Part shown: piece after piece, positions 7,478 to 46,501 of the stretch
Layout of the letters: each line of letters begins with the position of its first letter
Numbering within the stretch: the first letter of the stretch is position 1
DNA from: a virus
DNA length: 61,330 bases
IMG/VR virus record: IMGVR_UViG_3300003154_000789
Span: 1-61,330 of that record
Strand: one strand, 5' to 3'
The notes under the pieces: generated by a model
What the model was told of the DNA's origin: nothing
What the model saw: only the letters and a program-made list of their open reading frames with translations
Database searches by the model: none
Position numbers and translations under genes: made by a program

Positions 7478-7921
7478 ATGTTAGCAAATGGATTAAAAAT
7501 TTTTTATACTAAGATACATAAAGACGCAGTTGTTCCAGTGTATGAGAAGCTGGATGACGCAGCATGTAGTTTAAGAGTAATTGAAGATTACACAGTTCAT
7601 CCAGGTAAAAGAATTTTAGCTAAGACAGGACTAAAGATAGCGATACCAGAAGGTTTTGAGGCACAGGTTAGACCACGTAGTGGTAATGCTTGGAAGAAAG
7701 GGCTTACTGTTTTAAATAGCCCAGGCACTATCGATGCTGGATATAGGGGCGAAATTATGATAATTCTCATTAATCTAGGAGATGAGGATATTCTTATTAA
7801 AAAGGGAGACGCTGTTGCTCAAATGAAATTTTCACCAGTTTATACTGGTTATTTTATGGAGACTGATAACTTAGGTTCAACACAACGTGGAATAGGTGGT
7901 ATTGGCTCTACTGGTCATTAA
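7478..7921 (+). CDS. dut: dUTPase
   Basis: RPRSG, GTIDAGYRGEI, RGIGGIGSTG. Confidence 0.95.
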   Translation: MLANGLKIFYTKIHKDAVVPVYEKLDDAACSLRVIEDYTVHPGKRILAKTGLKIAIPEGFEAQVRPRSGNAWKKGLTVLNSPGTIDAGYRGEIMIILINLGDEDILIKKGDAVAQMKFSPVYTGYFMETDNLGSTQRGIGGIGSTGH

Positions 7922-7937
7922 GGAGGATTACACATAT

Positions 7938-10469
7938 ATGTTTATAGACCCTTTTCAGGAAAAAATATGGAAGGATAAATATCAATATAATGATGAAACC
8001 TATGAGGGATTTTGTCATAGAATATCTGACAATGTTTTTTCATTAGAGAAAGAAAAAAAGAAAAAACTTTTCGATCTATTAGTTGATTTTAAAGTTATGT
8101 TTGGTGGGCGAATCAATTCAAATATAGGCGTCTCAGAACAAGGTTTAACTTTGTTCAATTGTTTTATAGAGGCTATTTCAAAAAATCCAGACTCTTTGGA
8201 AGGTATTATGGATATGGTGACAAAGTATGCCATAACCTTAAAGACGGAGGGCGGTGTAGGTTTCTGTGCTAATTTTTTGAGACCAGCTAAAACAGTCATA
8301 AGAAAAATAGGAGTGACCACACCCGGTGCAATTAAGTTTTTAGAGATATTTGATAAAGTATCTGAAGTAATTACTTCGGGAAGTGTTGATAAAGATGATA
8401 GTTATCAAGGAGTTCCTTCAAAAAATAGTATACGTAAAGGAGCTACTATGGTAACGCTAAATATAAATCATCCTGATATAGAAGAATTTATTACTGCTAA
8501 ATCTATTCCTAATAAACTTACTAAAATGAATATGTCTGTACTGATTACAGATGCTTTTATGTATGCTGTCAGTAATGATTTAGATTGGGATCTCTGGTTT
8601 CCTGATATCAATTTCGAAAAATATGATGATGAGTGGGATGGTAATTTTGAAGCCTGGGCTGAAAAAGGATACCCATATGTTGTATATAAGAAAATAAGAG
8701 CACAAGAATTATGGGAACTTCTACTTAAGAATTTACACAATAGAAATGAACCGGGAATTTTATTCATTGATAATGTAAGAAAGATGGATAATTTGCACTA
8801 TCTTGACGGAGGTGCTATAACGGCTACTAATCCTTGTGGAGAAGTGCCAGGTAATACAGGGATAGTTAAGTATAATGGTGAGCTAGTTCAGTTGGGTGAT
8901 GTTTGTAATTTAGGTTCCATTAATCTAACTAAGTTTTATGATATAAAAGAAAATCGTTTTTGTGTGAAAGAATTTAAAGAAGCGATTGATATAATGGTTC
9001 ATTCTTTAGATAATATTATTGAAATATCTAATTATCCATTGGTTATGTATGAACAAGCATCAAAACTTAAAAGAAAAATTGGCATAGGACTCATGGGTGT
9101 AGGCTCTTTAATGATGATGATGAATCTTCGTTATGGAGGCGAGGAATGTTTAGATGTTCTCGATACCATTCTTAAAGAATTTATGAATCAGGCTTATGAA
9201 AGTTCTGCACTATTAGCTGCAGAAAAAGGACCGTTTCCTTTGTGGGATGCTAAAGCACTTGAAGGTGGTTTTCTAAATAGTGGAGAAGTTCTTAAACCAG
9301 CAGTATTAAAACTTATAGAAAAACATGGTTTAAGAAATTCTGCTGTTTCAGCTATAGCCCCAAATGGTACCCTTTCTATTGTTGCTGGAAATATTTCCGG
9401 TGGCTTAGAGCCTGTATATGCTAAAGAGTTTACTAGATGGAACAGAGTGGAGGGTAGACAAGTAGATTTTGAATATCCCAATATACATAAGGGTGAATGG
9501 TTTGAAACAAATTATTTTAAAGAACAACAAGTTGCTGATGAATCTATATTAGTGTCTAAAGATGGGGAATATCGTATAGATAAGAATAGTGGTTTGTGTA
9601 AGAAAACTACCATTAAAGACTATGGTTACAATCTTGCATTGGAAAATGGAAATACAGAATTGGCTGGTGCTAAAGATTTGACAGTTGAAGAACATCTTTC
9701 GGTATTGAAAGTATTTGCTAAATATATAGATCAGTCTTGTAGTAAGACCATAAATTTACCATCAGATTTGAGTTTTGAAGATTTTAAAGTGCTGTATGGT
9801 AAGATTTATAGCTATGGTATAAAAGGATGTACTACATATAGAGATGGGACTTCAGTTGCTGTACTTGAAACACAGAAGAAAGAACAAGAAAAATCTGTCA
9901 AACAGCAGCAAAAAGAATTTCTAGAGATGTTTAAGGGGCAAGAAAATGGCGACATTGTGTTTGAAAATGTAGAACTTCCAGACGAGTACCCAGCTAAAGG
10001 TTATATTCTTAAAACAGAAAATAAGAAGTGGTATTTAAGTGTAGCCTTTAAAGATAAAGCCTGTACCAGACCATTTGCTATATTTGTTAATACAAATAAT
10101 AAAGAAGATAATATAGTTACATTCAATACTTTGGATGTTTTGGAAGCTGTGGCTATTTCTAATGGGCTAAAGAGCGAGTTTATAGAAGAAACAAAAAGAA
10201 AATGTGCCTATCAAAAGAACCCGGTAAAGGTTTGTAGGATGTTAGGTCTTCTTTTAAGACATAATGTGTCTATATATGCTATCGTAAAAGGATTGGATAC
10301 AGTAGAAGAAGCTATTCCCGGTACATTTATATTTAGAATAAAGAAATTTCTTTCTCAGTTCATAACCAAAATTACTGAGCCTACATTGTGTCCTGAGTGC
10401 GGAGAAAAGACCATCGTTTTTGAATCTGGTTGCTACATATGTAAAAATTGTGGGAATACAAAATGCTAG
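7938..10469 (+). CDS. nrdJ: Class II (AdoCbl-dependent) ribonucleotide reductase
   Basis: LFNCF, RKGATM, TNPCGE, CNLGSINL, IAPNGT, SKTINLP, C-terminal CPECG..CYICKNCG; AGGAGG upstream; no beta-subunit gene adjacent. Confidence 0.9.
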   Translation: MFIDPFQEKIWKDKYQYNDETYEGFCHRISDNVFSLEKEKKKKLFDLLVDFKVMFGGRINSNIGVSEQGLTLFNCFIEAISKNPDSLEGIMDMVTKYAITLKTEGGVGFCANFLRPAKTVIRKIGVTTPGAIKFLEIFDKVSEVITSGSVDKDDSYQGVPSKNSIRKGATMVTLNINHPDIEEFITAKSIPNKLTKMNMSVLITDAFMYAVSNDLDWDLWFPDINFEKYDDEWDGNFEAWAEKGYPYVVYKKIRAQELWELLLKNLHNRNEPGILFIDNVRKMDNLHYLDGGAITATNPCGEVPGNTGIVKYNGELVQLGDVCNLGSINLTKFYDIKENRFCVKEFKEAIDIMVHSLDNIIEISNYPLVMYEQASKLKRKIGIGLMGVGSLMMMMNLRYGGEECLDVLDTILKEFMNQAYESSALLAAEKGPFPLWDAKALEGGFLNSGEVLKPAVLKLIEKHGLRNSAVSAIAPNGTLSIVAGNISGGLEPVYAKEFTRWNRVEGRQVDFEYPNIHKGEWFETNYFKEQQVADESILVSKDGEYRIDKNSGLCKKTTIKDYGYNLALENGNTELAGAKDLTVEEHLSVLKVFAKYIDQSCSKTINLPSDLSFEDFKVLYGKIYSYGIKGCTTYRDGTSVAVLETQKKEQEKSVKQQQKEFLEMFKGQENGDIVFENVELPDEYPAKGYILKTENKKWYLSVAFKDKACTRPFAIFVNTNNKEDNIVTFNTLDVLEAVAISNGLKSEFIEETKRKCAYQKNPVKVCRMLGLLLRHNVSIYAIVKGLDTVEEAIPGTFIFRIKKFLSQFITKITEPTLCPECGEKTIVFESGCYICKNCGNTKC

Positions 10470-18499: not shown

Positions 18500-18521
18500 T
18501 GATATATAGGAACTAATATTG

Positions 18522-20585
18522 ATGATGGACGAGCTAAAAAGGCTTAGAGAGCTAACTGAGGCTTTGACTGGTAATGGTTATCTCAAAGATCAAGCTAAGG
18601 AATGGGAATACGCACTTGATGCTATTCCGGAATGTGTATATATAATAAATAATAAATTTGAAATGAAATTTGTTAATAAAACACTAGCGGAACGCCTCGG
18701 TAAGAGTAAAGAAGAACTTTTTAATAAGATTTGCTATGAGGAAATACAAGGTCATTCTGAAGATTTTCCTAAAAAAGGTAGCGTAGATGATTATAAAGTT
18801 CTAAAGGCAAAATCTGTGCTGGAAGATATTTATATAATAAAATTAGGAGGGTGGTTTAATGTAACTAGGTCTCCTATTTATTCTAATTCTAGTAAACTAT
18901 TAGGTTTTATATGTGTTCTACAAGATGTAACAATAAAGAAGAAGGCTTTAGAGGGTTTGGTATATAGAGAAGCTACATTAGACGCAATATTTAATGCAGC
19001 ACCCATTGGTATAGGACTCATAGATGAGGAAGGAAGAATAATAAAAGCTGTTAATAAATTTCTTACCGATCTAACGGGATATACTGAAAAAGAATTAGTG
19101 GGGCAGTCAGTAAGAATTCTTTATCCATCAGAAGAGGAATTTTTACATGTTGGAAAAGTAAAATATGCTACATTAAAAGAGACTGGAATTGGTGCAGTAG
19201 AAACACAATTTCGCACAAAGGCTGGAGATATTTTAGATATATTTTTAAAAACGACTAAAATTAAATCTGGTAAATATTTAGTTTTTACAGTCACGGATAT
19301 AACAAATAGAAAGAAAAGAGAAAGACAGTTAAAATTAAATGAAGAACGTCTAAAATCTATTTTAGAACTCACCAAAATGAGTTATAGTTCTTATGAAGAA
19401 ATAACTACCTACGCTTTAGAAGAAGCGGTTAGACTAACCGATAGTAAAATAGGTTATATACATTTTGTAAACACTGCTGGAGATGATGTAGATTTAACTT
19501 TATTTCAATGGTCTAAGGAAACAAATGAAAATTGTATAGCTAACAAGGTTCCTCATTATCCCTTAGCAGAGGCTGGATGTTGGGCAGATTGTGTACGAGA
19601 AAAGAAACCAATAATCCATAATGATTATGAAACTATGACTTATGCAGAAGGCAAACGTGGACTTCCACAGGGGCATATAGGTCTTAGTAGACATATGGGA
19701 GTTCCTATTATGGAGAGCAATAATGTAGTAGCCGTAGCTGGTGTTGGGAATAAAGCTTTATCATACGATGAAACTGATTTAAGACAATTAAATCTATTTA
19801 TGAATAGTATGTGGGATATACTTAAAAGACAGAAGGCAGAGGAAGAATCTAAAAGAAATAGAGAATACTTTGAACGCCTAATCAATTCTACTCCTACAGG
19901 TATATTTGTTTACAAATTAGATGGGGATAATCTTATACTTAAACATTTTAATAAAGCTGCTACCAATATCCTAAAGATAGACTCATTAGTTGTGAATAAA
20001 ACTATAGAAGAACTTTTTTGTACCTTAACCAAACTTCCTATAATCGAGGAGTTTAAAAAGCTTGCTAAAGACGGGGGAACATTTTCTGATCTCATATATA
20101 AATATACTCATAATTCTATAGAAAGTATATATTCTGTAACTGCGTTTCAATCTGATGTAAATGAAGTGGCAGTATTATTTTATGAGGTAACTGATCACAT
20201 AAAAGCTTTTGCTGAAATAAAAAGTGGTCAAGATAAATTTAAAATTGTATTTGACAATAGCACAGATATGATTACTATTATACGTCTAGAGGATGAGATA
20301 ATTGTAGACGTCAATCCTGCTTTTGAAACTTACACTGGATACAAAAAAGAAGAAGTTATTGGTAAAAATATGATGAGTCTAAGTTTATGGAGTAGTATAT
20401 ATAATGACTCAACATTTCGTGATTTATTAACTAAAGAATCTAAAATTATGGATTATCCTTCTATTTTAAAACTGAAAGATGGAAGTGTGAGAAATATTTT
20501 AGTTTCCTCGTCTATAATTTATATTGATGATACACCGCATGTTGTATCAATTACGAGGTTGTATGATAAGAATTCTACTACTTGA
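18522..20585 (+). CDS. Multi-PAS/GAF sensor protein without output domain
   Basis: PAS motifs (DAIPECVYI, NAAPIGI..GYTEKELVG, NSTPTGI, DNSTDMI..GYKKEEVIG) and GAF (DSKIGYIHF..WADCVR..IHNDY..GVGNK); no HisKA/HATPase. Confidence 0.8.
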   Translation: MMDELKRLRELTEALTGNGYLKDQAKEWEYALDAIPECVYIINNKFEMKFVNKTLAERLGKSKEELFNKICYEEIQGHSEDFPKKGSVDDYKVLKAKSVLEDIYIIKLGGWFNVTRSPIYSNSSKLLGFICVLQDVTIKKKALEGLVYREATLDAIFNAAPIGIGLIDEEGRIIKAVNKFLTDLTGYTEKELVGQSVRILYPSEEEFLHVGKVKYATLKETGIGAVETQFRTKAGDILDIFLKTTKIKSGKYLVFTVTDITNRKKRERQLKLNEERLKSILELTKMSYSSYEEITTYALEEAVRLTDSKIGYIHFVNTAGDDVDLTLFQWSKETNENCIANKVPHYPLAEAGCWADCVREKKPIIHNDYETMTYAEGKRGLPQGHIGLSRHMGVPIMESNNVVAVAGVGNKALSYDETDLRQLNLFMNSMWDILKRQKAEEESKRNREYFERLINSTPTGIFVYKLDGDNLILKHFNKAATNILKIDSLVVNKTIEELFCTLTKLPIIEEFKKLAKDGGTFSDLIYKYTHNSIESIYSVTAFQSDVNEVAVLFYEVTDHIKAFAEIKSGQDKFKIVFDNSTDMITIIRLEDEIIVDVNPAFETYTGYKKEEVIGKNMMSLSLWSSIYNDSTFRDLLTKESKIMDYPSILKLKDGSVRNILVSSSIIYIDDTPHVVSITRLYDKNSTT

Positions 20586-31264: not shown

Positions 31265-31651
31265 ATGGAAACGAAACAAGTAATAGTAGTACGTAAGGAT
31301 TTAAAGATGGGTTGGGGAAAAATGGGTGCTCAGATTGCACATGCTGCTATGGCCGCCGCATTTACTAATTACCTTACGGATAATGGAGATTTAGTTTGGA
31401 ATTATATACCACCAAAAGAGATTAGAGAATGGCTTAGAGACGCCTTCACTAAAATTTGTGTGTGGGCTAAAGATGAAGAAGAACTACTTGATATTTATAT
31501 GAAGGCACGTCAAGCAGATCTTCCTTGTTCTCTAATAAAAGATAATGGAAGGACAGTGTTTAAAGGAGTACCAACTTTTACTACTGTGGGGGTTGGTCCT
31601 GGAGGAATTTCGGAAATAAATAAAATCACTGGACATTTACCATTGATATGA
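31265..31651 (+). CDS. pth2: Peptidyl-tRNA hydrolase, Pth2 family
   Basis: KQVIVVRKDLKM, GKMGAQIAHA, KIC, IKDNGRT, GVGP, ITGHLPL. Confidence 0.9.
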   Translation: METKQVIVVRKDLKMGWGKMGAQIAHAAMAAAFTNYLTDNGDLVWNYIPPKEIREWLRDAFTKICVWAKDEEELLDIYMKARQADLPCSLIKDNGRTVFKGVPTFTTVGVGPGGISEINKITGHLPLI

Positions 31652-37262: not shown

Positions 37263-37658
37263 GGGGATGACAGGTTTCGACATGGCGGATGTGACTATAG
37301 GCTCGATGCGTAGACTGTACAATACTACGTTAAAAATTGTATAAAAATAAATAACGAATCTATGTTAAACTATGCTCGTGAACAACTTACCGATGGTATT
37401 AGTGTCGTTAAATCTATGAGCAGATATATGGAAGCTGTCTAATAAACAATTCCATGGGGCTTTGCAGAGGCCTAGCAACAGAATTCTGTAGTTCGTTTTA
37501 AATTTTTAGTTGTGAGTATAAAGTTTCGTAGTTCTTTTTTGCAAAACTACGTGGTGGAAGGCGACGGTTAAAGCCGTTGGCCCCTTGTTGTTAGTATTAT
37601 CATCGTCAACCCTATAGAACCAACGTTGTGGACCCCGGTTCAATTCCGGGCATCTCCA
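37263..37658 (+). ncRNA. ssrA: tmRNA
   Basis: GGGGATG-ACAGGTTTCGAC 5' end, GGAC-CCCGG-TTCAATT-CCGGG-CATCTCC-A 3' end with G3:U; internal tag ORF ending TAATAA. Confidence 0.92.
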
Positions 37659-37853: not shown

Positions 37854-38525
37854 ATGAACTTCACAATACTAACCCCTGGTGATTGCCCAGTGATGTATGA
37901 TAAGTCTGATGCCACAGCTTCTAATTTTGGTGGCAGCAGGGCTGTTACAGCTGATATAGTAAAAGAACCACAATTTGATAAGCATTTAGATACAAGTTAT
38001 ATAACAGTTTCTGGCGGGGCAACAGTAAGTGGTGTCATTATTCCAGGTACTGGGTTATATAAAGTTTTTAGCTTTACAGAAGAAAGTTTGCCTGATTACG
38101 CTAAAAATATGTTTATCCAGGAGCGTTATGATACATATAATGCCTTAGTAGCATCTGGCATAGAAAACATGTATATAATACCAGATAGTTTTGATTTTTA
38201 TTTTCCTGGAACAGGTGATTATACCCATCGTTATGGTAACGCCCCATCCATAGAAGAAAATCCAGTAGATACTGCCATCAGAGATATAGATGATATGTCT
38301 AATCTTGAAGAACGTAAGAATGATTTCTCTCAGCAAGAGATAAGAGCAGATGTTCAGAAAGGTAATGAGGGGTTAGGTATTCAGTCTGATCCAGAAAATC
38401 GTCCTCGTATGGATGAAGGAACTGATGCAGTTCAAGTACCGAGTTCAGATTTCCGCGAAGAGATGAAGAAAAATAATAGATGGTCATTTGGTAACTCAGC
38501 ACGTTATGAAGGGGAAATAAGTTAA
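37854..38525 (+). CDS. hypothetical protein
   Basis: AAGGAG RBS. Confidence 0.65.
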   Translation: MNFTILTPGDCPVMYDKSDATASNFGGSRAVTADIVKEPQFDKHLDTSYITVSGGATVSGVIIPGTGLYKVFSFTEESLPDYAKNMFIQERYDTYNALVASGIENMYIIPDSFDFYFPGTGDYTHRYGNAPSIEENPVDTAIRDIDDMSNLEERKNDFSQQEIRADVQKGNEGLGIQSDPENRPRMDEGTDAVQVPSSDFREEMKKNNRWSFGNSARYEGEIS

Positions 38526-38627
38526 TGACGTAGATTTCTGGTTTTACATAGATTAGGGGTCCTCCTTATATTTAGCTTAATTTTATTAATATATAAACAA
38601 TTCAACATAATATAAGGAGAATACAAA

Positions 38628-38930
38628 ATGAGATACACAAAATACCCTATGATGAAAGATGAACTTAAACAATTAGCAAAAGAAATTCGTGAGTGCAAGA
38701 GCGTCCGTAAACAAGATGAAAGAGAAAAATTAAATTTAGAACTGTATCAAGTTCAATATAATATTGATAAACGAAAAGATATATTTAGGCACACACATAT
38801 AGCATACTGCATGCTCAGAGGTAAAACATATGAGCAAATTGAAAATCACTGTAGAGTTCTCCCAAACTTTAACAGGATAAACAAGTTGATGGAAGAGAAT
38901 GAACAAAAAACTATTTGTGCTAGTGCGTAA
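38628..38930 (+). CDS. hypothetical phage protein
   Basis: RHTHIAYCMLRGKTYEQIE. Confidence 0.65.
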   Translation: MRYTKYPMMKDELKQLAKEIRECKSVRKQDEREKLNLELYQVQYNIDKRKDIFRHTHIAYCMLRGKTYEQIENHCRVLPNFNRINKLMEENEQKTICASA

Positions 38931-39195
38931 AAATTTGTCAAGAAGTCAGCAAGCAGTTCAAGCGGGTCACGCAGTAGCAGAATATCTGCTCCGTGGCCCG
39001 TTTACGTTTTGGGAGAACGGAACTCTTGTTTACTTAGAAGTAAAAGATGAGATAGTCCTTAGACAATGGGAGACATAGATTTCTTCCGCGGGCTATAAGA
39101 CAGTACCTTTCTATGAACCAGATAGAAATAATGAGATGACAGCATTTGCTTCAGAAGGTTGCGATGATCTTGTAAGAGAATTAAAATTACTTTAA
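38899..39195 (+). CDS. Pth2-like protein with in-frame TAG at 39076-39078 (readthrough candidate or pseudogene)
   Basis: LFVLVRKNLS..QAVQAGHAVAE before the TAG; FYEPD.NNEMTAFA...LKLL after it, same frame. Confidence 0.7.
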
Positions 39196-39208
39196 GAGGT
39201 GAGGTGTC

Positions 39209-39400
39209 ATGTATGATGAAGAAGACTTAAAGGATTGCATAGACTTAGACTTAGAATGGTTAAAAAAAGAACTTGAGGACTTGACAATAGAGGAAAGATG
39301 TCTTATATTGGATGAGTACATAGAGCGGACACAGAAATATGGTGTAGGTATACTGGAATATAAGGCTTTTGTTGAAGCATTTGATAAATTGGAGGATTAA
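39209..39400 (+). CDS. acidic hypothetical protein
   Basis: GAGGTG RBS. Confidence 0.5.
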   Translation: MYDEEDLKDCIDLDLEWLKKELEDLTIEERCLILDEYIERTQKYGVGILEYKAFVEAFDKLED

Positions 39401-39405
39401 AAGGA

Positions 39406-39762
39406 ATGTCATATAATATAACGAGTTGGAAGACTAAGGAAATATCTAATTTACTAATACCATTAAAAGTTATAGCAGATCTACCTTATACGTATATTGA
39501 AGTTGATGGTGCAAGTGTGAGTGCCAAAGGACTTTCTGAAGGTTTCAAACTTGAAGGAAATTTAATAGATAACAATATTGTAGAAGTAACCAAAATAAAA
39601 ACTTCTGATGATGGTAGTGGTTCAACTTGGCAAGATTTTATTAATATGCTTAAAGAAAGTAGAGGTATACTTGTTGCTATTCAAATTTGGGAGGGCGGAG
39701 ATAGCCTTTCTAAACTTATAGTAAATAATGGTGAAGTAATTGATGAGCCATATGAGTTGTAG
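39406..39762 (+). CDS. hypothetical protein
   Basis: WEGGDS motif, RBS. Confidence 0.6.
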   Translation: MSYNITSWKTKEISNLLIPLKVIADLPYTYIEVDGASVSAKGLSEGFKLEGNLIDNNIVEVTKIKTSDDGSGSTWQDFINMLKESRGILVAIQIWEGGDSLSKLIVNNGEVIDEPYEL

Positions 39763-39773
39763 GGAGAATAGTA

Positions 39774-39953
39774 ATGGAAATAGAAAAGGCAAGAGATAGA
39801 ATCCAGGCTATAGAAAAAAACATAACAGATCTTATCCGTGATTTCGAAAAGGAATATGATATGTGCATCAATAGAGTAGGTCTTGAACGTACTTATGCAT
39901 TGGGGGATAGGTTTGGGTATTTATGTCGGGTCAACTTTGATATTAGGTTGTAG
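39774..39953 (+). CDS. 59-aa hypothetical protein, paralog of next ORF
   Basis: GGGAG RBS; ends VNFDIRL. Confidence 0.55.
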   Translation: MEIEKARDRIQAIEKNITDLIRDFEKEYDMCINRVGLERTYALGDRFGYLCRVNFDIRL

Positions 39954-39963
39954 GAGAATAGGA

Positions 39964-40143
39964 ATGGATATATTAGAAATGCAGAAGAAAAAGGCGGTAG
40001 TGGAACATGCAATAGATGAACTTCTAAATACTTTTGAAGAAGAAACTAATATGAGAGTATACGATATAGATTTCGATCGAGGGATAGAGATGACACAGCG
40101 TGGTAGTTTTATTTTTAATGTTAATTTGGATATAAGATTATGA
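39964..40143 (+). CDS. 59-aa hypothetical protein
   Basis: AGGAG RBS; ends VNLDIRL. Confidence 0.55.
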   Translation: MDILEMQKKKAVVEHAIDELLNTFEEETNMRVYDIDFDRGIEMTQRGSFIFNVNLDIRL

Positions 40144-40751
40144 TAGATCCTTCAAATATAACTAACTATAATTTGACAGAAGATGAATTAGAGGAGCACA
40201 TACTTTTCTGGGTAGCAGCTGCTGGAAAGAATGGTAGAACTGCAGCAAGACGCCTTGAAGTATTTCTTACTATGATTACCTATAATGGTATGAGCCCTTT
40301 TGATGCTTTAAAAAATCAATATCTATATGATGTTAAAGAAAAAGGTGACCCTACTCATGCTACTATGTCTGAACTTATGAAGCTGGCAGGGATAGGTTGT
40401 TATACTAATAAGAGTAAAACCTTTACTGAATTATCTCATGCACCTATAGATTTAAGTACATGCTCCACTGAAGAATTAGAAAAGATATATGGTATTGGAC
40501 CAAAGACTGCTAGATGTTTTATCCTTCACTCACGTAAAGGTGCAAGACTATCTGGTCTTGATACACATATGCTTAAACATTTAAGGGAAATGGGAGTAGA
40601 AGGTGTTCCTAAGTCTACGCCTTCTTCCAAAAAGAAATATATGATATTGGAACAAGAAGTTTTAAGGTTAGCAGACGAGGCAGGAATGAGCCCCGCTGAT
40701 TATGATTTAAAAATTTGGAACAAATACTCGACAAAAGTTCTTGACAAATAG
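40140..40751 (+). CDS. HhH-GPD superfamily DNA glycosylase-like protein
   Basis: IYGIGPKTARCF HhH, LDTH, YDLKIW. Confidence 0.7.
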   Translation: MIDPSNITNYNLTEDELEEHILFWVAAAGKNGRTAARRLEVFLTMITYNGMSPFDALKNQYLYDVKEKGDPTHATMSELMKLAGIGCYTNKSKTFTELSHAPIDLSTCSTEELEKIYGIGPKTARCFILHSRKGARLSGLDTHMLKHLREMGVEGVPKSTPSSKKKYMILEQEVLRLADEAGMSPADYDLKIWNKYSTKVLDK

Positions 40752-40768
40752 AAGTTATGTATTATCTT
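40741..40768 (+). promoter_or_regulatory. sigma70-type promoter
   Basis: TTGACA-16-TATCTT. Confidence 0.7.
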
Positions 40769-40821
40769 ATATATAAGTAAGGGAAAGGCAAATTTCAATA
40801 ACAGTACAAGGAGAATGTAAT

Positions 40822-41550
40822 ATGCAAGAAAAAATGATTAGTATTAATGACAAAGGAAGAAAAACCAATCGTAGTTCTTTAGCATTCTATAACAAACAAA
40901 AAGAATTGCTAACTGTATCTGCTTTAAAAACTCCAATCGAACAGCTAGTGGCTACATATGGTTATGATGTTGTAGCTAACGTGCTGAGCACATTTAAAAA
41001 GTTTCCATATAGAAATAGTCAATGGTTTGACCAAGATAAATATCCTTCAGGTAAATCTTTTAGTGAAGCCTATGTAAAATTTATGAGAGAGGAAGTGTTC
41101 ACCGATCTCATTGAACATAAAGGTTCCACATCATACGATGACGATTTATCAAAAATTAGAATAGAACAGAAAGCTATACGAGCTCTTGGACCCAAAGCGT
41201 TAGGTTCCTTCTCTGATAGAGCACAGATTAAAGCTGAGTTTAAAAATACTTCTAGGACTTGGCAGCAGGTTAAACCAGATCTTTTTGATATGCTTTTAGG
41301 AGCCGTTGTTTATCTTGATCGTACAGACTATTATCTTATTCACAGATCTGATATGTGTTTGACCATACATGATGATTCTCCCAATAAAGTTAAACTTGGA
41401 AAACAACATGCTAAGGGAGAAAGTTGGGGACAAGTTAATCCCTTCAGACCATTAACAGAATCTTTTCTATTTGCTACATCAACTGAAACAGAGCCTTTGG
41501 AAAATGTGAAATTACTTGACTTTCTAAATAAACTCAATGTTGGAATTTAA
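40822..41550 (+). CDS. hypothetical protein, possible restriction endonuclease
   Basis: YDD...IEQKA (PD-(D/E)XK-like); coupled to methyltransferase. Confidence 0.4.
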   Translation: MQEKMISINDKGRKTNRSSLAFYNKQKELLTVSALKTPIEQLVATYGYDVVANVLSTFKKFPYRNSQWFDQDKYPSGKSFSEAYVKFMREEVFTDLIEHKGSTSYDDDLSKIRIEQKAIRALGPKALGSFSDRAQIKAEFKNTSRTWQQVKPDLFDMLLGAVVYLDRTDYYLIHRSDMCLTIHDDSPNKVKLGKQHAKGESWGQVNPFRPLTESFLFATSTETEPLENVKLLDFLNKLNVGI

Positions 41551-42982
41551 GAATATACAAGAAAGAAAAGAGGTTTTGGGCCAGTTTTTCACTCCTGAAG
41601 AACTGGCTTTAAAACTTATAGAAAATTTAGACATCACCACTGATCTAATAATTGAACCTTCATTCGGTTCGGGTAATTTTTTGACAGCTTTGAGTTCAAA
41701 ATTTTCTATAGAAAAGATTATAGGTATAGAATTGGATGAATTCTATTATGATTTGGTTAAAAATAATGAGAAATTCAACAACATGAAGTTGCTAAATGAA
41801 AATTTTTATGACTTCTCTATCTGTGATTTTTCAAAATCTATAACTTTTGTAGGGAATCCTCCCTTTAGAACACCAGCATGGTCCTTAAAAACACATAATA
41901 AATATGTTAAAATGTTATGTAAAAAATATGACATTCATGGTATAAGGGAGGAGGCAATATTTTTTATAGTTAAGACCTGTGATATTCTAATTGAAAATGA
42001 TATACCTGGTTATATATATTATATAGTACCATCTACCATTATCAAAAATAATACCAAATTTTATAAGTCGTTCATGAAGTTTTTAATAAAATACTTCTTT
42101 ATTTCCATAAGTACTATTGAGAAGAATCAATTCGACAACGTGTCCCAAGATTTAATATTCTTACAGTTGGAAAAGAAACAAGATTTAAAAAAGATACAAG
42201 AATATATAATGGTAGATACAGAAAAGATAGATCTAAAAGAATATATATTTGGAAAGGATGACCTTATACCACATCAAGAAATTTTCAAGAGATCATACTT
42301 AGGTTCAGTTCCTTGTGAGAGTATATTTATATCTATTTCTGGTGAGCCTATAGAACATTTCAGACAGCGTCTTATAAAACTTTTTTATTGTAATATTAAA
42401 AACAATGAGGAACTATTATCATTATTATCTTTTGATGGAAAACGCTATCTTAAAGTTTTGGGGTCTGGTTCAGAAGCAAATGTGGATTCAAAATTAGACA
42501 TAATAACAAATTATATAAATGAAATTAAACGAAGAATAGATCTTAATATTTTTAGCGATAGTAATAATTATAAACCTATAAGACATAGAAAGGAAGATAG
42601 GTATTACTTTAGACATAGAGATCTTAAGGGTTTAAGTTTTGTTTATGAGTTAAACCCAAATCCAGGACAGTCTTTTTATTTTACTGGTAATCCATCACAT
42701 TCATCCACAGATTACTTTGGATATTGTTCTTATGATGTGACACGAAATTCTAGTCCAGGGGCGTGTAGAACAATTCCTTTAGAGGACTTGGAGGAGAATT
42801 TAGTAGAGGAATTTAAGGTTTATTGGAACGAAAATACTAATGGATTAGATTATAAATACATCTTTGATTATATAATTTTTATATCTAAAACACAGTGGTA
42901 TAGAGATATCAAGAAAGAAAAAAGACGTATGTATTTTTCTCTTCCAAAGAAGTTTAATAGATTATTTCTTGAGAGTACTTGA
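41537..42982 (+). CDS. N6-adenine DNA methyltransferase
   Basis: LGQFFTP, IEPSFGSGNF, GIELD, GNPPF. Confidence 0.85.
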   Translation: MLEFKNIQERKEVLGQFFTPEELALKLIENLDITTDLIIEPSFGSGNFLTALSSKFSIEKIIGIELDEFYYDLVKNNEKFNNMKLLNENFYDFSICDFSKSITFVGNPPFRTPAWSLKTHNKYVKMLCKKYDIHGIREEAIFFIVKTCDILIENDIPGYIYYIVPSTIIKNNTKFYKSFMKFLIKYFFISISTIEKNQFDNVSQDLIFLQLEKKQDLKKIQEYIMVDTEKIDLKEYIFGKDDLIPHQEIFKRSYLGSVPCESIFISISGEPIEHFRQRLIKLFYCNIKNNEELLSLLSFDGKRYLKVLGSGSEANVDSKLDIITNYINEIKRRIDLNIFSDSNNYKPIRHRKEDRYYFRHRDLKGLSFVYELNPNPGQSFYFTGNPSHSSTDYFGYCSYDVTRNSSPGACRTIPLEDLEENLVEEFKVYWNENTNGLDYKYIFDYIIFISKTQWYRDIKKEKRRMYFSLPKKFNRLFLEST

Positions 42983-43006
42983 CAAATAGTAGTTATGCAT
43001 TATATT
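42979..43006 (+). promoter_or_regulatory. sigma70-type promoter for suppressor tRNA
   Basis: TTGACA-16-TATATT. Confidence 0.7.
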
Positions 43007-43027
43007 ATATGTATGAAAAACGGATAT

Positions 43028-43103
43028 GGCTCAGTAGCTAAGTTGGCGTAGCGGATGCCTCTAAAACATTGAAACATGGGTTCGAGTCCCATCTGAGCCA
43101 CCA
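43028..43103 (+). tRNA. Amber suppressor tRNA (CTA)
   Basis: Canonical register GGCTCAG-TA-GCTA..TAGC-G-GATGC-CTCTAAA-ACATT-GAAAC-ATGGG-TTCGAGT-CCCAT-CTGAGCC-A-CCA. Confidence 0.82.
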
Positions 43104-43122
43104 TTAAGAAAAGGAGAATTAT

Positions 43123-44013
43123 ATGAAAAACGAAGCATTGTATAAGAATTTTGACAATATCCCAACCCGTAAAGGAAGAGGTGGAGTATATCCTTATGTC
43201 CGTTGGCAAGATGTAGCCGATAGGATGAACGAGGTATTTGGCACTAACTGGTCTAGTGAAGTTTTATTTCAGGATATTATTGGAGCTAACGTCATAGTCA
43301 GAGTTAGAGTGACGATTACTGATTCAGAAAAAGGAATATTTTTTACGCAAGAAGGATTTGGCGGAGCTCCTAATGATGCTAACGCAGAAGCTGGCACACC
43401 CTTCAAGTCTGCGTATTCCAAAGCATTAAAAGATGCCTGTAAAAAGTGGGGAGTTGGGTTATATCTTGATGAAGACGATGATAGTAGTAGTATGTCCACG
43501 CCAACATTGCCTACCGGATATATGGGAAAAGAAATTGGGGTACCTCCAAGTATTCCAGTTTTAACAGAAGACCCTGGTGTTTTTTCTAAATCTGCACCAC
43601 CTTTTCCCCCAGTAGTAGGCGAAAGTAGTATGCCCCTGCCCCCAGGAGTTGGTGGAGGTATGCCTTTGCCCCCAGGAGTTGGTATGAATAATTCACACAC
43701 AATTGTTGTTCCCGAGACTCCTACGCTGCCTTCTATGCCTTCGATTCCACCTACGGTGAATCTAAAGGATAACACCCCAATGTCAAAAGTTGGTGTTATT
43801 AATACTGGGGAACCTGAATATATCTCCGATGTGCAGAGAGCAGCATTACAGAGTATATTAAGTATTAAAGGTGTAGATTATAAAACCCTAGCTCAAGAAG
43901 CATTTGAATTTAATGGACTTACGATAAGCCCTATTCCTGAAGCAGATAAGTTATCTTATCAGGAAGCTGTTTATGTAATTAAATTTGGTAACGATAAATT
44001 TCGTAAACGATAA
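43123..44013 (+). CDS. Rad52/Rad22-family single-strand annealing protein with Pro-rich linker
   Basis: RKGRGG..YV, VADRMNEVFG.NWS, KSAYSKALKDACKKWGVGLYL. Confidence 0.8.
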   Translation: MKNEALYKNFDNIPTRKGRGGVYPYVRWQDVADRMNEVFGTNWSSEVLFQDIIGANVIVRVRVTITDSEKGIFFTQEGFGGAPNDANAEAGTPFKSAYSKALKDACKKWGVGLYLDEDDDSSSMSTPTLPTGYMGKEIGVPPSIPVLTEDPGVFSKSAPPFPPVVGESSMPLPPGVGGGMPLPPGVGMNNSHTIVVPETPTLPSMPSIPPTVNLKDNTPMSKVGVINTGEPEYISDVQRAALQSILSIKGVDYKTLAQEAFEFNGLTISPIPEADKLSYQEAVYVIKFGNDKFRKR

Positions 44014-46006: not shown

Positions 46007-46501
46007 ATGGATCTAAGAGAACTGGAAGACTATGTATCTATAATGTTAGGACAATTGCGTGTAGCCTTTAAAAAGTTTAATATAATCAGAGGCATTTCTA
46101 CTCAATTTATTATCGAGGATTTTGGTTTAATAATTTGTTGTATAAATAGAGTCGATTACGCTCAAGTTAATGATATGCTTGTTAAGAATTATTCTGATTG
46201 GAGACTATTTTATGTAACCACTAATGATGATATAGCCACAAAAAAAGATGAAGTACTATGGCATTTGATGCGTTGTGGTTATATGAAGTGGTTACGATAC
46301 ACTTTCCCAAGACAAGTTAAGAGTATCATCAATGGCACAGAGAGTCTAGGGCAGAAGATTATAAGGGAGCGTTTGAGAATTTGGGCAAACAAACCAAAAT
46401 ATAAATTTCTTATTGAAGACAATAAAGCAGCATTGATAAATGGTGTGCTAAGAGAATTAACAAGTGATCCTAGCTTTTTTGATTATATGCCGGAGGAATA
46501 G
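46007..46501 (+). CDS. hypothetical protein
   Basis: AAGGA RBS. Confidence 0.55.
   Translation: MDLRELEDYVSIMLGQLRVAFKKFNIIRGISTQFIIEDFGLIICCINRVDYAQVNDMLVKNYSDWRLFYVTTNDDIATKKDEVLWHLMRCGYMKWLRYTFPRQVKSIINGTESLGQKIIRERLRIWANKPKYKFLIEDNKAALINGVLRELTSDPSFFDYMPEE

Follow-up and report, generated by a model that had tools for sequence, protein, structure and literature searches.

A conserved gene-tRNA module in a giant groundwater phage: a Pth2-like protein that is probably completed only when the phage's tRNA(CUA) overrides an in-frame stop codon

The IMG/VR virus record IMGVR_UViG_3300003154_000789 (141.5 kb, 37% G+C) derives from a giant groundwater phage with a normal genetic code. Its first 61 kb, a stretch of 61,330 nucleotides that we refer to as the window, holds a gene on the plus strand (38899..39195) that encodes a protein resembling peptidyl-tRNA hydrolase 2 (Pth2). 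This gene has 98 codons including one in-frame UAG and is translated as 59 residues, TAG (39076-39078), 38 residues and a terminal TAA; a preliminary description of the window had stated that nothing but this TAG splits the open reading frame (ORF), and the translation bears this out. The beginning of the gene overlaps by 32 nt the end of an ORF for a 100-aa, all-helical protein (38628..38930, plus strand), and 3.8 kb downstream of it, with a separate putative promoter, lies a tRNA gene with the anticodon CUA, i.e. of the amber suppressor type, and an encoded CCA (43028..43103, plus strand; ARAGORN and Rfam). Here, we analyze these three elements and their relatives and suggest how they may work together.

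The read-through protein falls into phrog_1866, a divergent family at the edge of the Pfam family PF01981. In PHROGs, it matches phrog_1866 (E 7.9e-9) and a family named 'hydrolase', and a profile of 73 homologues matches the Pth2 enzymes in the PDB with an E of 2.6e-4. A search with PF01981 gave no match for it even at E<=10, and the protein does not reach the gathering cut-off. An AlphaFold2 model built with the homologue alignment (pLDDT 94.2) forms one compact domain with core strands after residue 60, and the best 14 PDB matches of this model in Foldseek are all Pth2-fold chains, mostly named Pth2 or Bit1, with TM scores of up to 0.84. On the basis of this modelling, the read-through protein is predicted to have the Pth2 fold, yet it belongs to a divergent family; the earlier label 'Pth2-like' therefore holds for the fold, on which the PHROG, profile, AlphaFold2 and Foldseek results agree, and fails for Pfam membership. 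The family comprises 3324 cluster representatives at 50% identity (E<=1e-3), some of which pass the PF01981 cut-off, as does ORF364 of Xanthomonas phage XacN1 with 25.3 bits against a cut-off of 23. We also observed a database protein of 3148 aa (P0123) with 22 separate stretches that match positions 37-77 of the family profile and that may be a repeat protein or a translation artefact.

The in-frame TAG (39076..39078, plus strand) is codon 60 and is followed by ATT. It lies in a variable alignment column within predicted helix alpha-2 (residues 51-63 of the AlphaFold2 model), and relatives with a full length of 98 aa carry Q, K, H, E, N or R at this position. TAG is found at the same codon in five other DNA contigs, of which four are from metagenomes (L035, L036, L037 and L038) and one (L115) is from a metagenome-assembled genome labelled Desulfobacteraceae. 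Among these six diverged DNA sequences, the codons flanking the TAG have diverged and the synonymous divergence (dS) reaches from 0.4 to saturation, while the 38 codons after the TAG are open in all six, with no stops or indels, and run to the stop codon usual for the family. The ratio of nonsynonymous to synonymous divergence (dN/dS) after the TAG is 0.13-0.32 and is similar to that of the part before it. These patterns indicate that purifying selection acts on the 38 post-TAG codons and, because the synonymous divergence is heavy and the downstream dN/dS low, they suggest that the TAG is old and maintained and that the part downstream of it is translated. In addition, 13 diverged protein clusters (73-95% identical) end at residue 59, which gives the position of the stop from proteins only. 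A second scan of viral contigs with an alignment of the 59-aa part gave no match. The check for conservation in relatives that the preliminary description had proposed thus has a clear outcome, and an error or a mutation confined to this phage does not explain the TAG.

In principle, the 59-residue N-terminal peptide could be the real product, or the gene could be a decaying pseudogene, with the downstream part either untranslated or made separately, and it is true that gene callers give 59-aa proteins throughout the clade. We consider this extremely improbable given the selection on the downstream part and its integrity over 38 codons in six diverged sequences. Moreover, there is no in-frame start codon downstream of the TAG before codon 80 from which the second part could be made, and in the AlphaFold2 model the strands that follow residue 60 belong to the core of a single domain.

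The tRNA gene at 43028-43103 is the only one with a CUA anticodon among the 27 tRNAs that, together with one transfer-messenger RNA (tmRNA), were identified in the record by ARAGORN, and its Rfam tRNA score of 59.7 bits is mid-range among these 27. It has the architecture of a suppressor-type tRNA, i.e. a cloverleaf with a 7-nt anticodon loop (CU-CUA-AA) in which U33 and the purines A37-A38 flank CUA at 34-36. An intact CUA tRNA with an encoded CCA and a C31.A39 mismatch had been described before at this position and is confirmed by ARAGORN, Rfam and the sequence itself. Aligned with its counterparts in the family, it is one of 19 tRNA-CUA genes that share one cloverleaf, in which 19 of the 21 pairs show compensatory changes and the CUA is invariant, suggesting that these genes evolve as working tRNAs; the acceptor stem is variable and the discriminator base 73 is A, G, U or C. 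The 31-39 pair is mismatched (C.A, A.C or C.C) in six of the 19, including the tRNA of the window (43058 / 43066), leaving a stem of 4 bp, a type of anticodon stem that is the subject of a 2026 NAR paper (PMC13092985). ARAGORN labels the gene 'tRNA-Pyl' because of the anticodon alone: the D-arm is ordinary, the variable loop has 5 nt, the hallmarks of a pyrrolysine tRNA are absent, and the 141.5 kb have no match to PylS (TIGR02367).

Approximately 20 nt before the tRNA lies a promoter-like motif of 32 nt (42979..43010, plus strand), in which TTGACA and TATATT are separated by a spacer of 16 nt (42979-43006) and which agrees with the consensus at 11 of 12 positions, in line with the previous assignment of an own promoter to this tRNA. 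The whole motif, TTGACAAATAG.AGTTATG.ATTAT.TTATAT, occurs in two zero-mismatch copies on the plus strand, at 42979-43010 and at 40741-40772, where it precedes a gene at 40822-41550, and none of 100 shuffles yielded two matches. The motif probably represents a class of phage promoter.

The gene and the tRNA are linked far beyond this phage. We ran ARAGORN on 119 loci that were fetched via the protein, 100 of which carry a member of the Pth2-like family and 19 a member of an unrelated 180-aa family that shares a peptide pattern with it. A tRNA-CUA gene is present in 72 of the 100 family loci, always on the strand of the Pth2-like gene and in about 30 of them just 1-60 nt behind its stop codon; the 28 loci without it in the fetched stretch are mostly short contigs. 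The 19 loci of the unrelated family contain no tRNA-CUA according to ARAGORN. (Members of this separate family of ~180 aa, L098-L114, L119 and L120, start with LEKRMYFFVPYNIS, have only the first ~30 residues in common with the Pth2-like family and never have a tRNA-CUA nearby.) In two of the relatives with TAG at codon 60 (L038 and L115), the tRNA-CUA gene lies 0.9-1.2 kb upstream and shares the acceptor stem GGCYCAG with the tRNA of the window. Genomes with an in-frame TAG in this gene always carry tRNA-CUA where enough DNA was covered; in a long record that has an early TAG and no suppressor nearby, the tRNA-CUA gene is 60 kb away. The flanks of the related loci give no sign of TAG recoding.

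The partner ORF is part of the same association. It has an invariant motif, RHxHIAxC..G..IE, and its 32-nt overlap with the Pth2-like gene recurs in L039 (57% identity), L115 (39%), L038 and L002. Five other proteins (P0172, P0183, P0190, P0192 and P0232) combine a homologue of the partner and the Pth2-like domain in a single in-frame fusion. The partner has no match in Pfam or PHROGs, and its AlphaFold2 model (pLDDT 87.9) has no fold match in the PDB. The overlap itself (38899-38930) holds a run of six A (CAAAAAAC), and in other phages the partner and the Pth2-like part form one reading frame. In total, the sequence comparisons show that the Pth2-like protein, the partner ORF and tRNA-CUA travel together across deep divergence.

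TAG codons with intact conserved sequence on both sides also occur elsewhere in this gene family. In other lineages, TAG is found at codon 15 (L077), codon 34 (L009), codons 35-37 (L071, L044, L047, L052 and L088) and codon 47 (L012, L054 and L065), and many distant family members have it at codons 2-4. Cultured phages are among the latter. In Acinetobacter phage ME3, the gene starts with ATG ACT TAG ATT; the start annotated in the record is an internal one, and a 'tRNA-OTHER, anticodon CTA' is listed 0.45 kb upstream of the Pth2-like gene. In Salmonella phage Arash, the gene starts with ATG CTG TAG AAC and a CUA tRNA lies ~1 kb downstream. The Arash tRNA (L158 2798-2872; 49176-49247 of the record) is annotated as tRNA-Phe, and ARAGORN reads its anticodon as CUA. 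In this early-TAG clade, we also noticed that a protein with an HD motif (HDxGKP) follows the Pth2-like gene (L159 1800-2363, ME3_194), and that in XacN1 ORF364 (L157 1961-2500, N-terminal part) the Pth2-like domain carries this HD-motif protein as an N-terminal fusion; the 141.5 kb analyzed here contain no homologue of this HD-like partner of ME3 and XacN1. Of 43 distinct contexts of in-gene TAGs, 28 have an A directly after the TAG, mostly as part of an Ile codon, versus eight of the 34 terminal TAGs of this genome. In classical work on E. coli by Bossi and by Miller and Albertini, a 3' A is said to favour amber suppression.

Outside this gene, TAG is an ordinary stop codon. Crude gene calls with code 11 cover 83% of the 141.5 kb, and the 218 genes called in this way end in TAA (137), TGA (47) or TAG (34), i.e. 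~16% end in TAG. The gene for the large subunit of ribonucleotide reductase (RNR, 7896-10469) has a terminal TAG, located at the end of its domain, that is followed by a Shine-Dalgarno site and an ATG, a helix-hairpin-helix (HhH) glycosylase-like gene (40140-40751) has its TAG stop where the domain ends, and the TAG stop of the peptide deformylase gene at 101390 coincides with the end of the domain. The gain in ORF length is smaller if TAG is read as sense than if TGA or TAA is, and the record displays neither a low code-11 coding density that is rescued by TAG-as-sense nor many TAG-holding genes, the two marks of a code-15 genome. No RF-1 domain was found in the 141.5 kb, and megablast of positions 38000-44000 against phage records gave no match. 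The genome, within these 141.5 kb, is not recoded, and the earlier statement that TAG is a normal stop here, based on RNR and UDG, is upheld by the RNR, glycosylase-like and deformylase genes. The scan for other single-TAG genes that had been proposed along with it found no further TAG-split gene in the 141.5 kb. Candidates for TAG read-through at 46007, 69059, 74707, 117102, 117912 and 122940 were rejected on account of a Shine-Dalgarno site and a start codon right after the TAG, those at 66805, 110641 and 34359 were rejected as no family spans the TAG, and the one at 101390 is the deformylase, the domain of which finishes at the TAG.

These data also bear on the suggestion of the preliminary description that the locus might be an early stage of stop-codon reassignment. 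According to this scenario, TAG is being reassigned early or partially across the genome in a code 15-like manner, with most recoded genes outside the 141.5 kb. Lak phages, which are reportedly TAG-recoded, also carry the Pth2-like family. The CheckV completeness of the record is ~54% and a 247-kb contig carries the same protein, leaving room for such genes, and in the recoded phages known so far it is mainly late genes that are affected (10.1101/2021.08.26.457843). Opposed to this are the 16% of called genes that end in TAG, several of them confirmed by homology, the smaller ORF gain with TAG as sense than with TGA or TAA, and the recurrence of the single-gene pattern in dozens of distant phages in which the flanks are not recoded. 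We therefore regard reassignment as very unlikely. Rather, because the in-frame TAG is limited to one gene family, in which it takes several positions, and recurs in many distant phages with the standard code, it looks like a stable pairing of gene and tRNA and not like a genome in transit.

The phage has a canonical PTH2 paralogue of 128 aa (31265..31651, plus strand; P0121) that is located in a tRNA array directly before tRNA-Gln and matches PF01981 with 104 bits (E 4.5e-31). It keeps the GK and DxGRT (DNGRT) motifs, its gene is not gated, and when the genome was searched with PF01981 in all six frames, the sole match fell here, at 31274-31645. In profile-profile comparison, only the first 15 residues of the gated family align with this canonical Pth2. 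Since the canonical enzyme is also present, the gated gene is not simply the Pth of the phage. The tmRNA gene (37263..37658, plus strand; ARAGORN, Rfam RF00023 74.3 bits) is 1.2 kb upstream of the gated gene, and the tag peptide that ARAGORN predicts for it, VSIKFRSSFLQNYVVEGDG, lacks the usual hydrophobic degradation signal at its end. Farther away in the window (18519-20585, plus strand), a 688-aa protein of sensor type with several PAS domains and a GAF domain is encoded, which is unusual in a phage early region.

Combining the conservation of the TAG with the linkage data, we suggest that the full-length protein depends on suppression, within a conserved protein-tRNA module, and consider this likely. 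The preliminary description is thereby supported in part: of its two interpretations, the suppression-gated gene is the best-supported reading, given that the TAG, neither error nor private, occupies the same codon in five further contigs, that the downstream frame is conserved and that 13 clusters end at residue 59, whereas early reassignment has not stood up. Three findings go beyond that description: the gene and the tRNA belong to a conserved module, the upstream 100-aa ORF is its third element, and a canonical Pth2 is encoded separately. In the model that we favour, the module has three parts, namely the 100-aa helical partner, the 98-aa Pth2-fold protein and tRNA(CUA). Release factor 1 would terminate translation at UAG60 and give a 59-residue fragment without two beta-strands and the invariant E73-P-D75...T81 motif, and the whole domain would be made only if the tRNA(CUA) of the phage, expressed from its own promoter, inserts an amino acid at codon 60. 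Thus, as judged from the sequences, the Pth2-like protein is probably completed only when tRNA-CUA overrides the stop, and its output would track how strongly UAG is suppressed in the infected cell.

The second part of the model concerns the function of the protein. As it accompanies the tRNA even in the absence of a TAG and has the fold of enzymes that cut tRNA 3'-esters, we propose that the Pth2-fold protein may act on tRNA(CUA), in its aminoacyl or peptidyl form, or on products of read-through. If so, the in-frame UAG would close a feedback loop, and we think that the module probably forms such a loop. The analogy with prfB, which encodes release factor 2 (RF2) and is autoregulated via an in-frame UGA, and with infC, which encodes IF3 and is autoregulated via its AUU start codon, inclines us to a negative, level-setting feedback. 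A negative loop would limit the damage to the many genes terminated by UAG. Alternatively, the feedback could be positive or could serve as a fail-safe coupling, which we do not favour. A more specific version would make the module a self-contained governor of read-through, in which the Pth2-fold protein and the helical partner strip the aminoacyl or peptidyl group specifically from tRNA(CUA) and, with codon 60 of the protein's own mRNA needing that same tRNA, hold UAG suppression at a set level; this version is put forward tentatively and is rather unlikely.

Several observations weigh against a suppression-gated module. The anticodon stem of tRNA-CUA (GAUGC/ACAUU) is weak, with the C31.A39 mismatch and a G27.U43 pair, and folding of the single sequence gives no cloverleaf, although the comparative fold does. 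In an alignment to the Pth2 of M. jannaschii (2zv3), Gln17 takes the place of the Lys in the GK motif and Glu73 that of the Asp in DxGxT; these Lys and Asp residues are catalytic according to work on the S. solfataricus enzyme, and the replacements make hydrolase activity uncertain. Strong suppression should be costly to a phage in which 34 ordinary genes terminate in TAG. The genome is only partially covered by the record (CheckV, ~54%). Finally, many family members have no in-frame TAG, implying that gating is not essential to the module, and in a quick tree (100 columns, poorly resolved) rows with TAG at codon 60 are mixed with relatives that have a sense codon there, implying that the TAG may flip easily.

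The last two points lend some weight to the idea that the TAG is tolerated rather than selected. At a position that accepts any residue, a TAG could be nearly neutral once a suppressor tRNA is co-expressed and could drift in and out with no regulatory role. Column 60 is indeed variable, and in the poorly resolved tree the TAG60 rows are mixed with close relatives in which a sense codon (for Q, K, H, E, N or R) takes its place. Drift of this kind does not easily account for the TAG being kept in all six DNA sequences despite saturated synonymous sites, for the lack of an in-frame TAG in any other gene found in the 141.5 kb, or for its recurrence in at least five columns of one family with a 3' context biased to A. 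Mere tolerance therefore appears unlikely to us, and we continue to favour dependence on suppression.

In-frame UAG codons at several positions of one gene are the repeated outcome that is expected if dependence on read-through is useful in itself. If the feedback loop is real, the module would be a minimal natural switch operated in trans by a tRNA, and it would bear on how phages tune the translation of their hosts, on how the reassignment of a stop codon can start from a single gene and on where synthetic biologists could look for orthogonal suppressor tRNA parts of natural origin. If the governor version is correct, it would represent a natural, portable and orthogonal circuit of tRNA, enzyme and sensor and would explain the 'orphan' suppressor tRNAs of jumbo phages with the standard code. 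Because the family is large (~3300 clusters at 50% identity) and is present in cultured phages, the idea is directly testable.

To our knowledge, the suppressor tRNAs of standard-code phages have had no known target so far, and our literature searches found no paper in which a suppressor tRNA is connected with a Pth2-like gene or an in-frame TAG in such a gene is described. The locus described here and its relatives offer a probable target, one that is specific, conserved and in physical linkage with the suppressor tRNA. A close case is Xanthomonas phage XacN1, for which the authors extended 18 reading frames past their terminal amber codons without finding a target of its suppressor tRNAs (PMC5852040). 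Like the phage studied here, XacN1 is a jumbo phage that uses the standard code, carries tRNA(CUA) genes and encodes a protein of the Pth2-like family; its copy, in contrast, is without TAG and fused to an HD-like domain, whereas here a probable target has been identified.

Compared with the Pth2 enzymes of archaea and eukaryotes (PF01981; PDB 2zv3, 1wn2, 3erj and 1xty, and human Bit1, 1q7s), the phage protein has the same predicted alpha/beta fold (TM scores of 0.75-0.84) and the RxDL...Q..HA motifs. It is shorter than these enzymes by ~20 residues, scores under the Pfam cut-off, has Gln for the Lys of GK and E-P-D..N..T in place of DxGxT, and coexists with a true PTH2 in the same phage.

Phages in which TAG is read as Gln ('code 15'; crAss-like phages, Lak phages and others) and which have their own suppressor tRNAs have been described (Borges et al., 10.1101/2021.08.26.457843; Peters et al., PMC9523058); the words 'hydrolase' and 'Pth' do not occur in the former preprint. 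In these phages, and probably in ours, genes with in-frame TAGs need the phage tRNA(CUA) in a host with the standard code, and a regulatory role has been proposed. In the code-15 phages, recoding extends to many genes, predominantly late ones, and TAG no longer serves as a stop, whereas here one small gene family holds the TAG, ~16% of the genes end in TAG and the target is linked to the tRNA.

Like prfB, the module has a translation-related gene whose reading frame contains a conserved stop codon, and as for prfB and infC the gene carries an in-frame signal on the decoding of which its product could report. The mechanisms are different. In prfB, ribosomes pass the stop by a +1 frameshift that requires no special tRNA, and the action of RF2 on UGA is established; in the phage module, read-through would be mediated by a tRNA, and the action of the product on UAG decoding is suggested by its fold and its linkage to tRNA(CUA).

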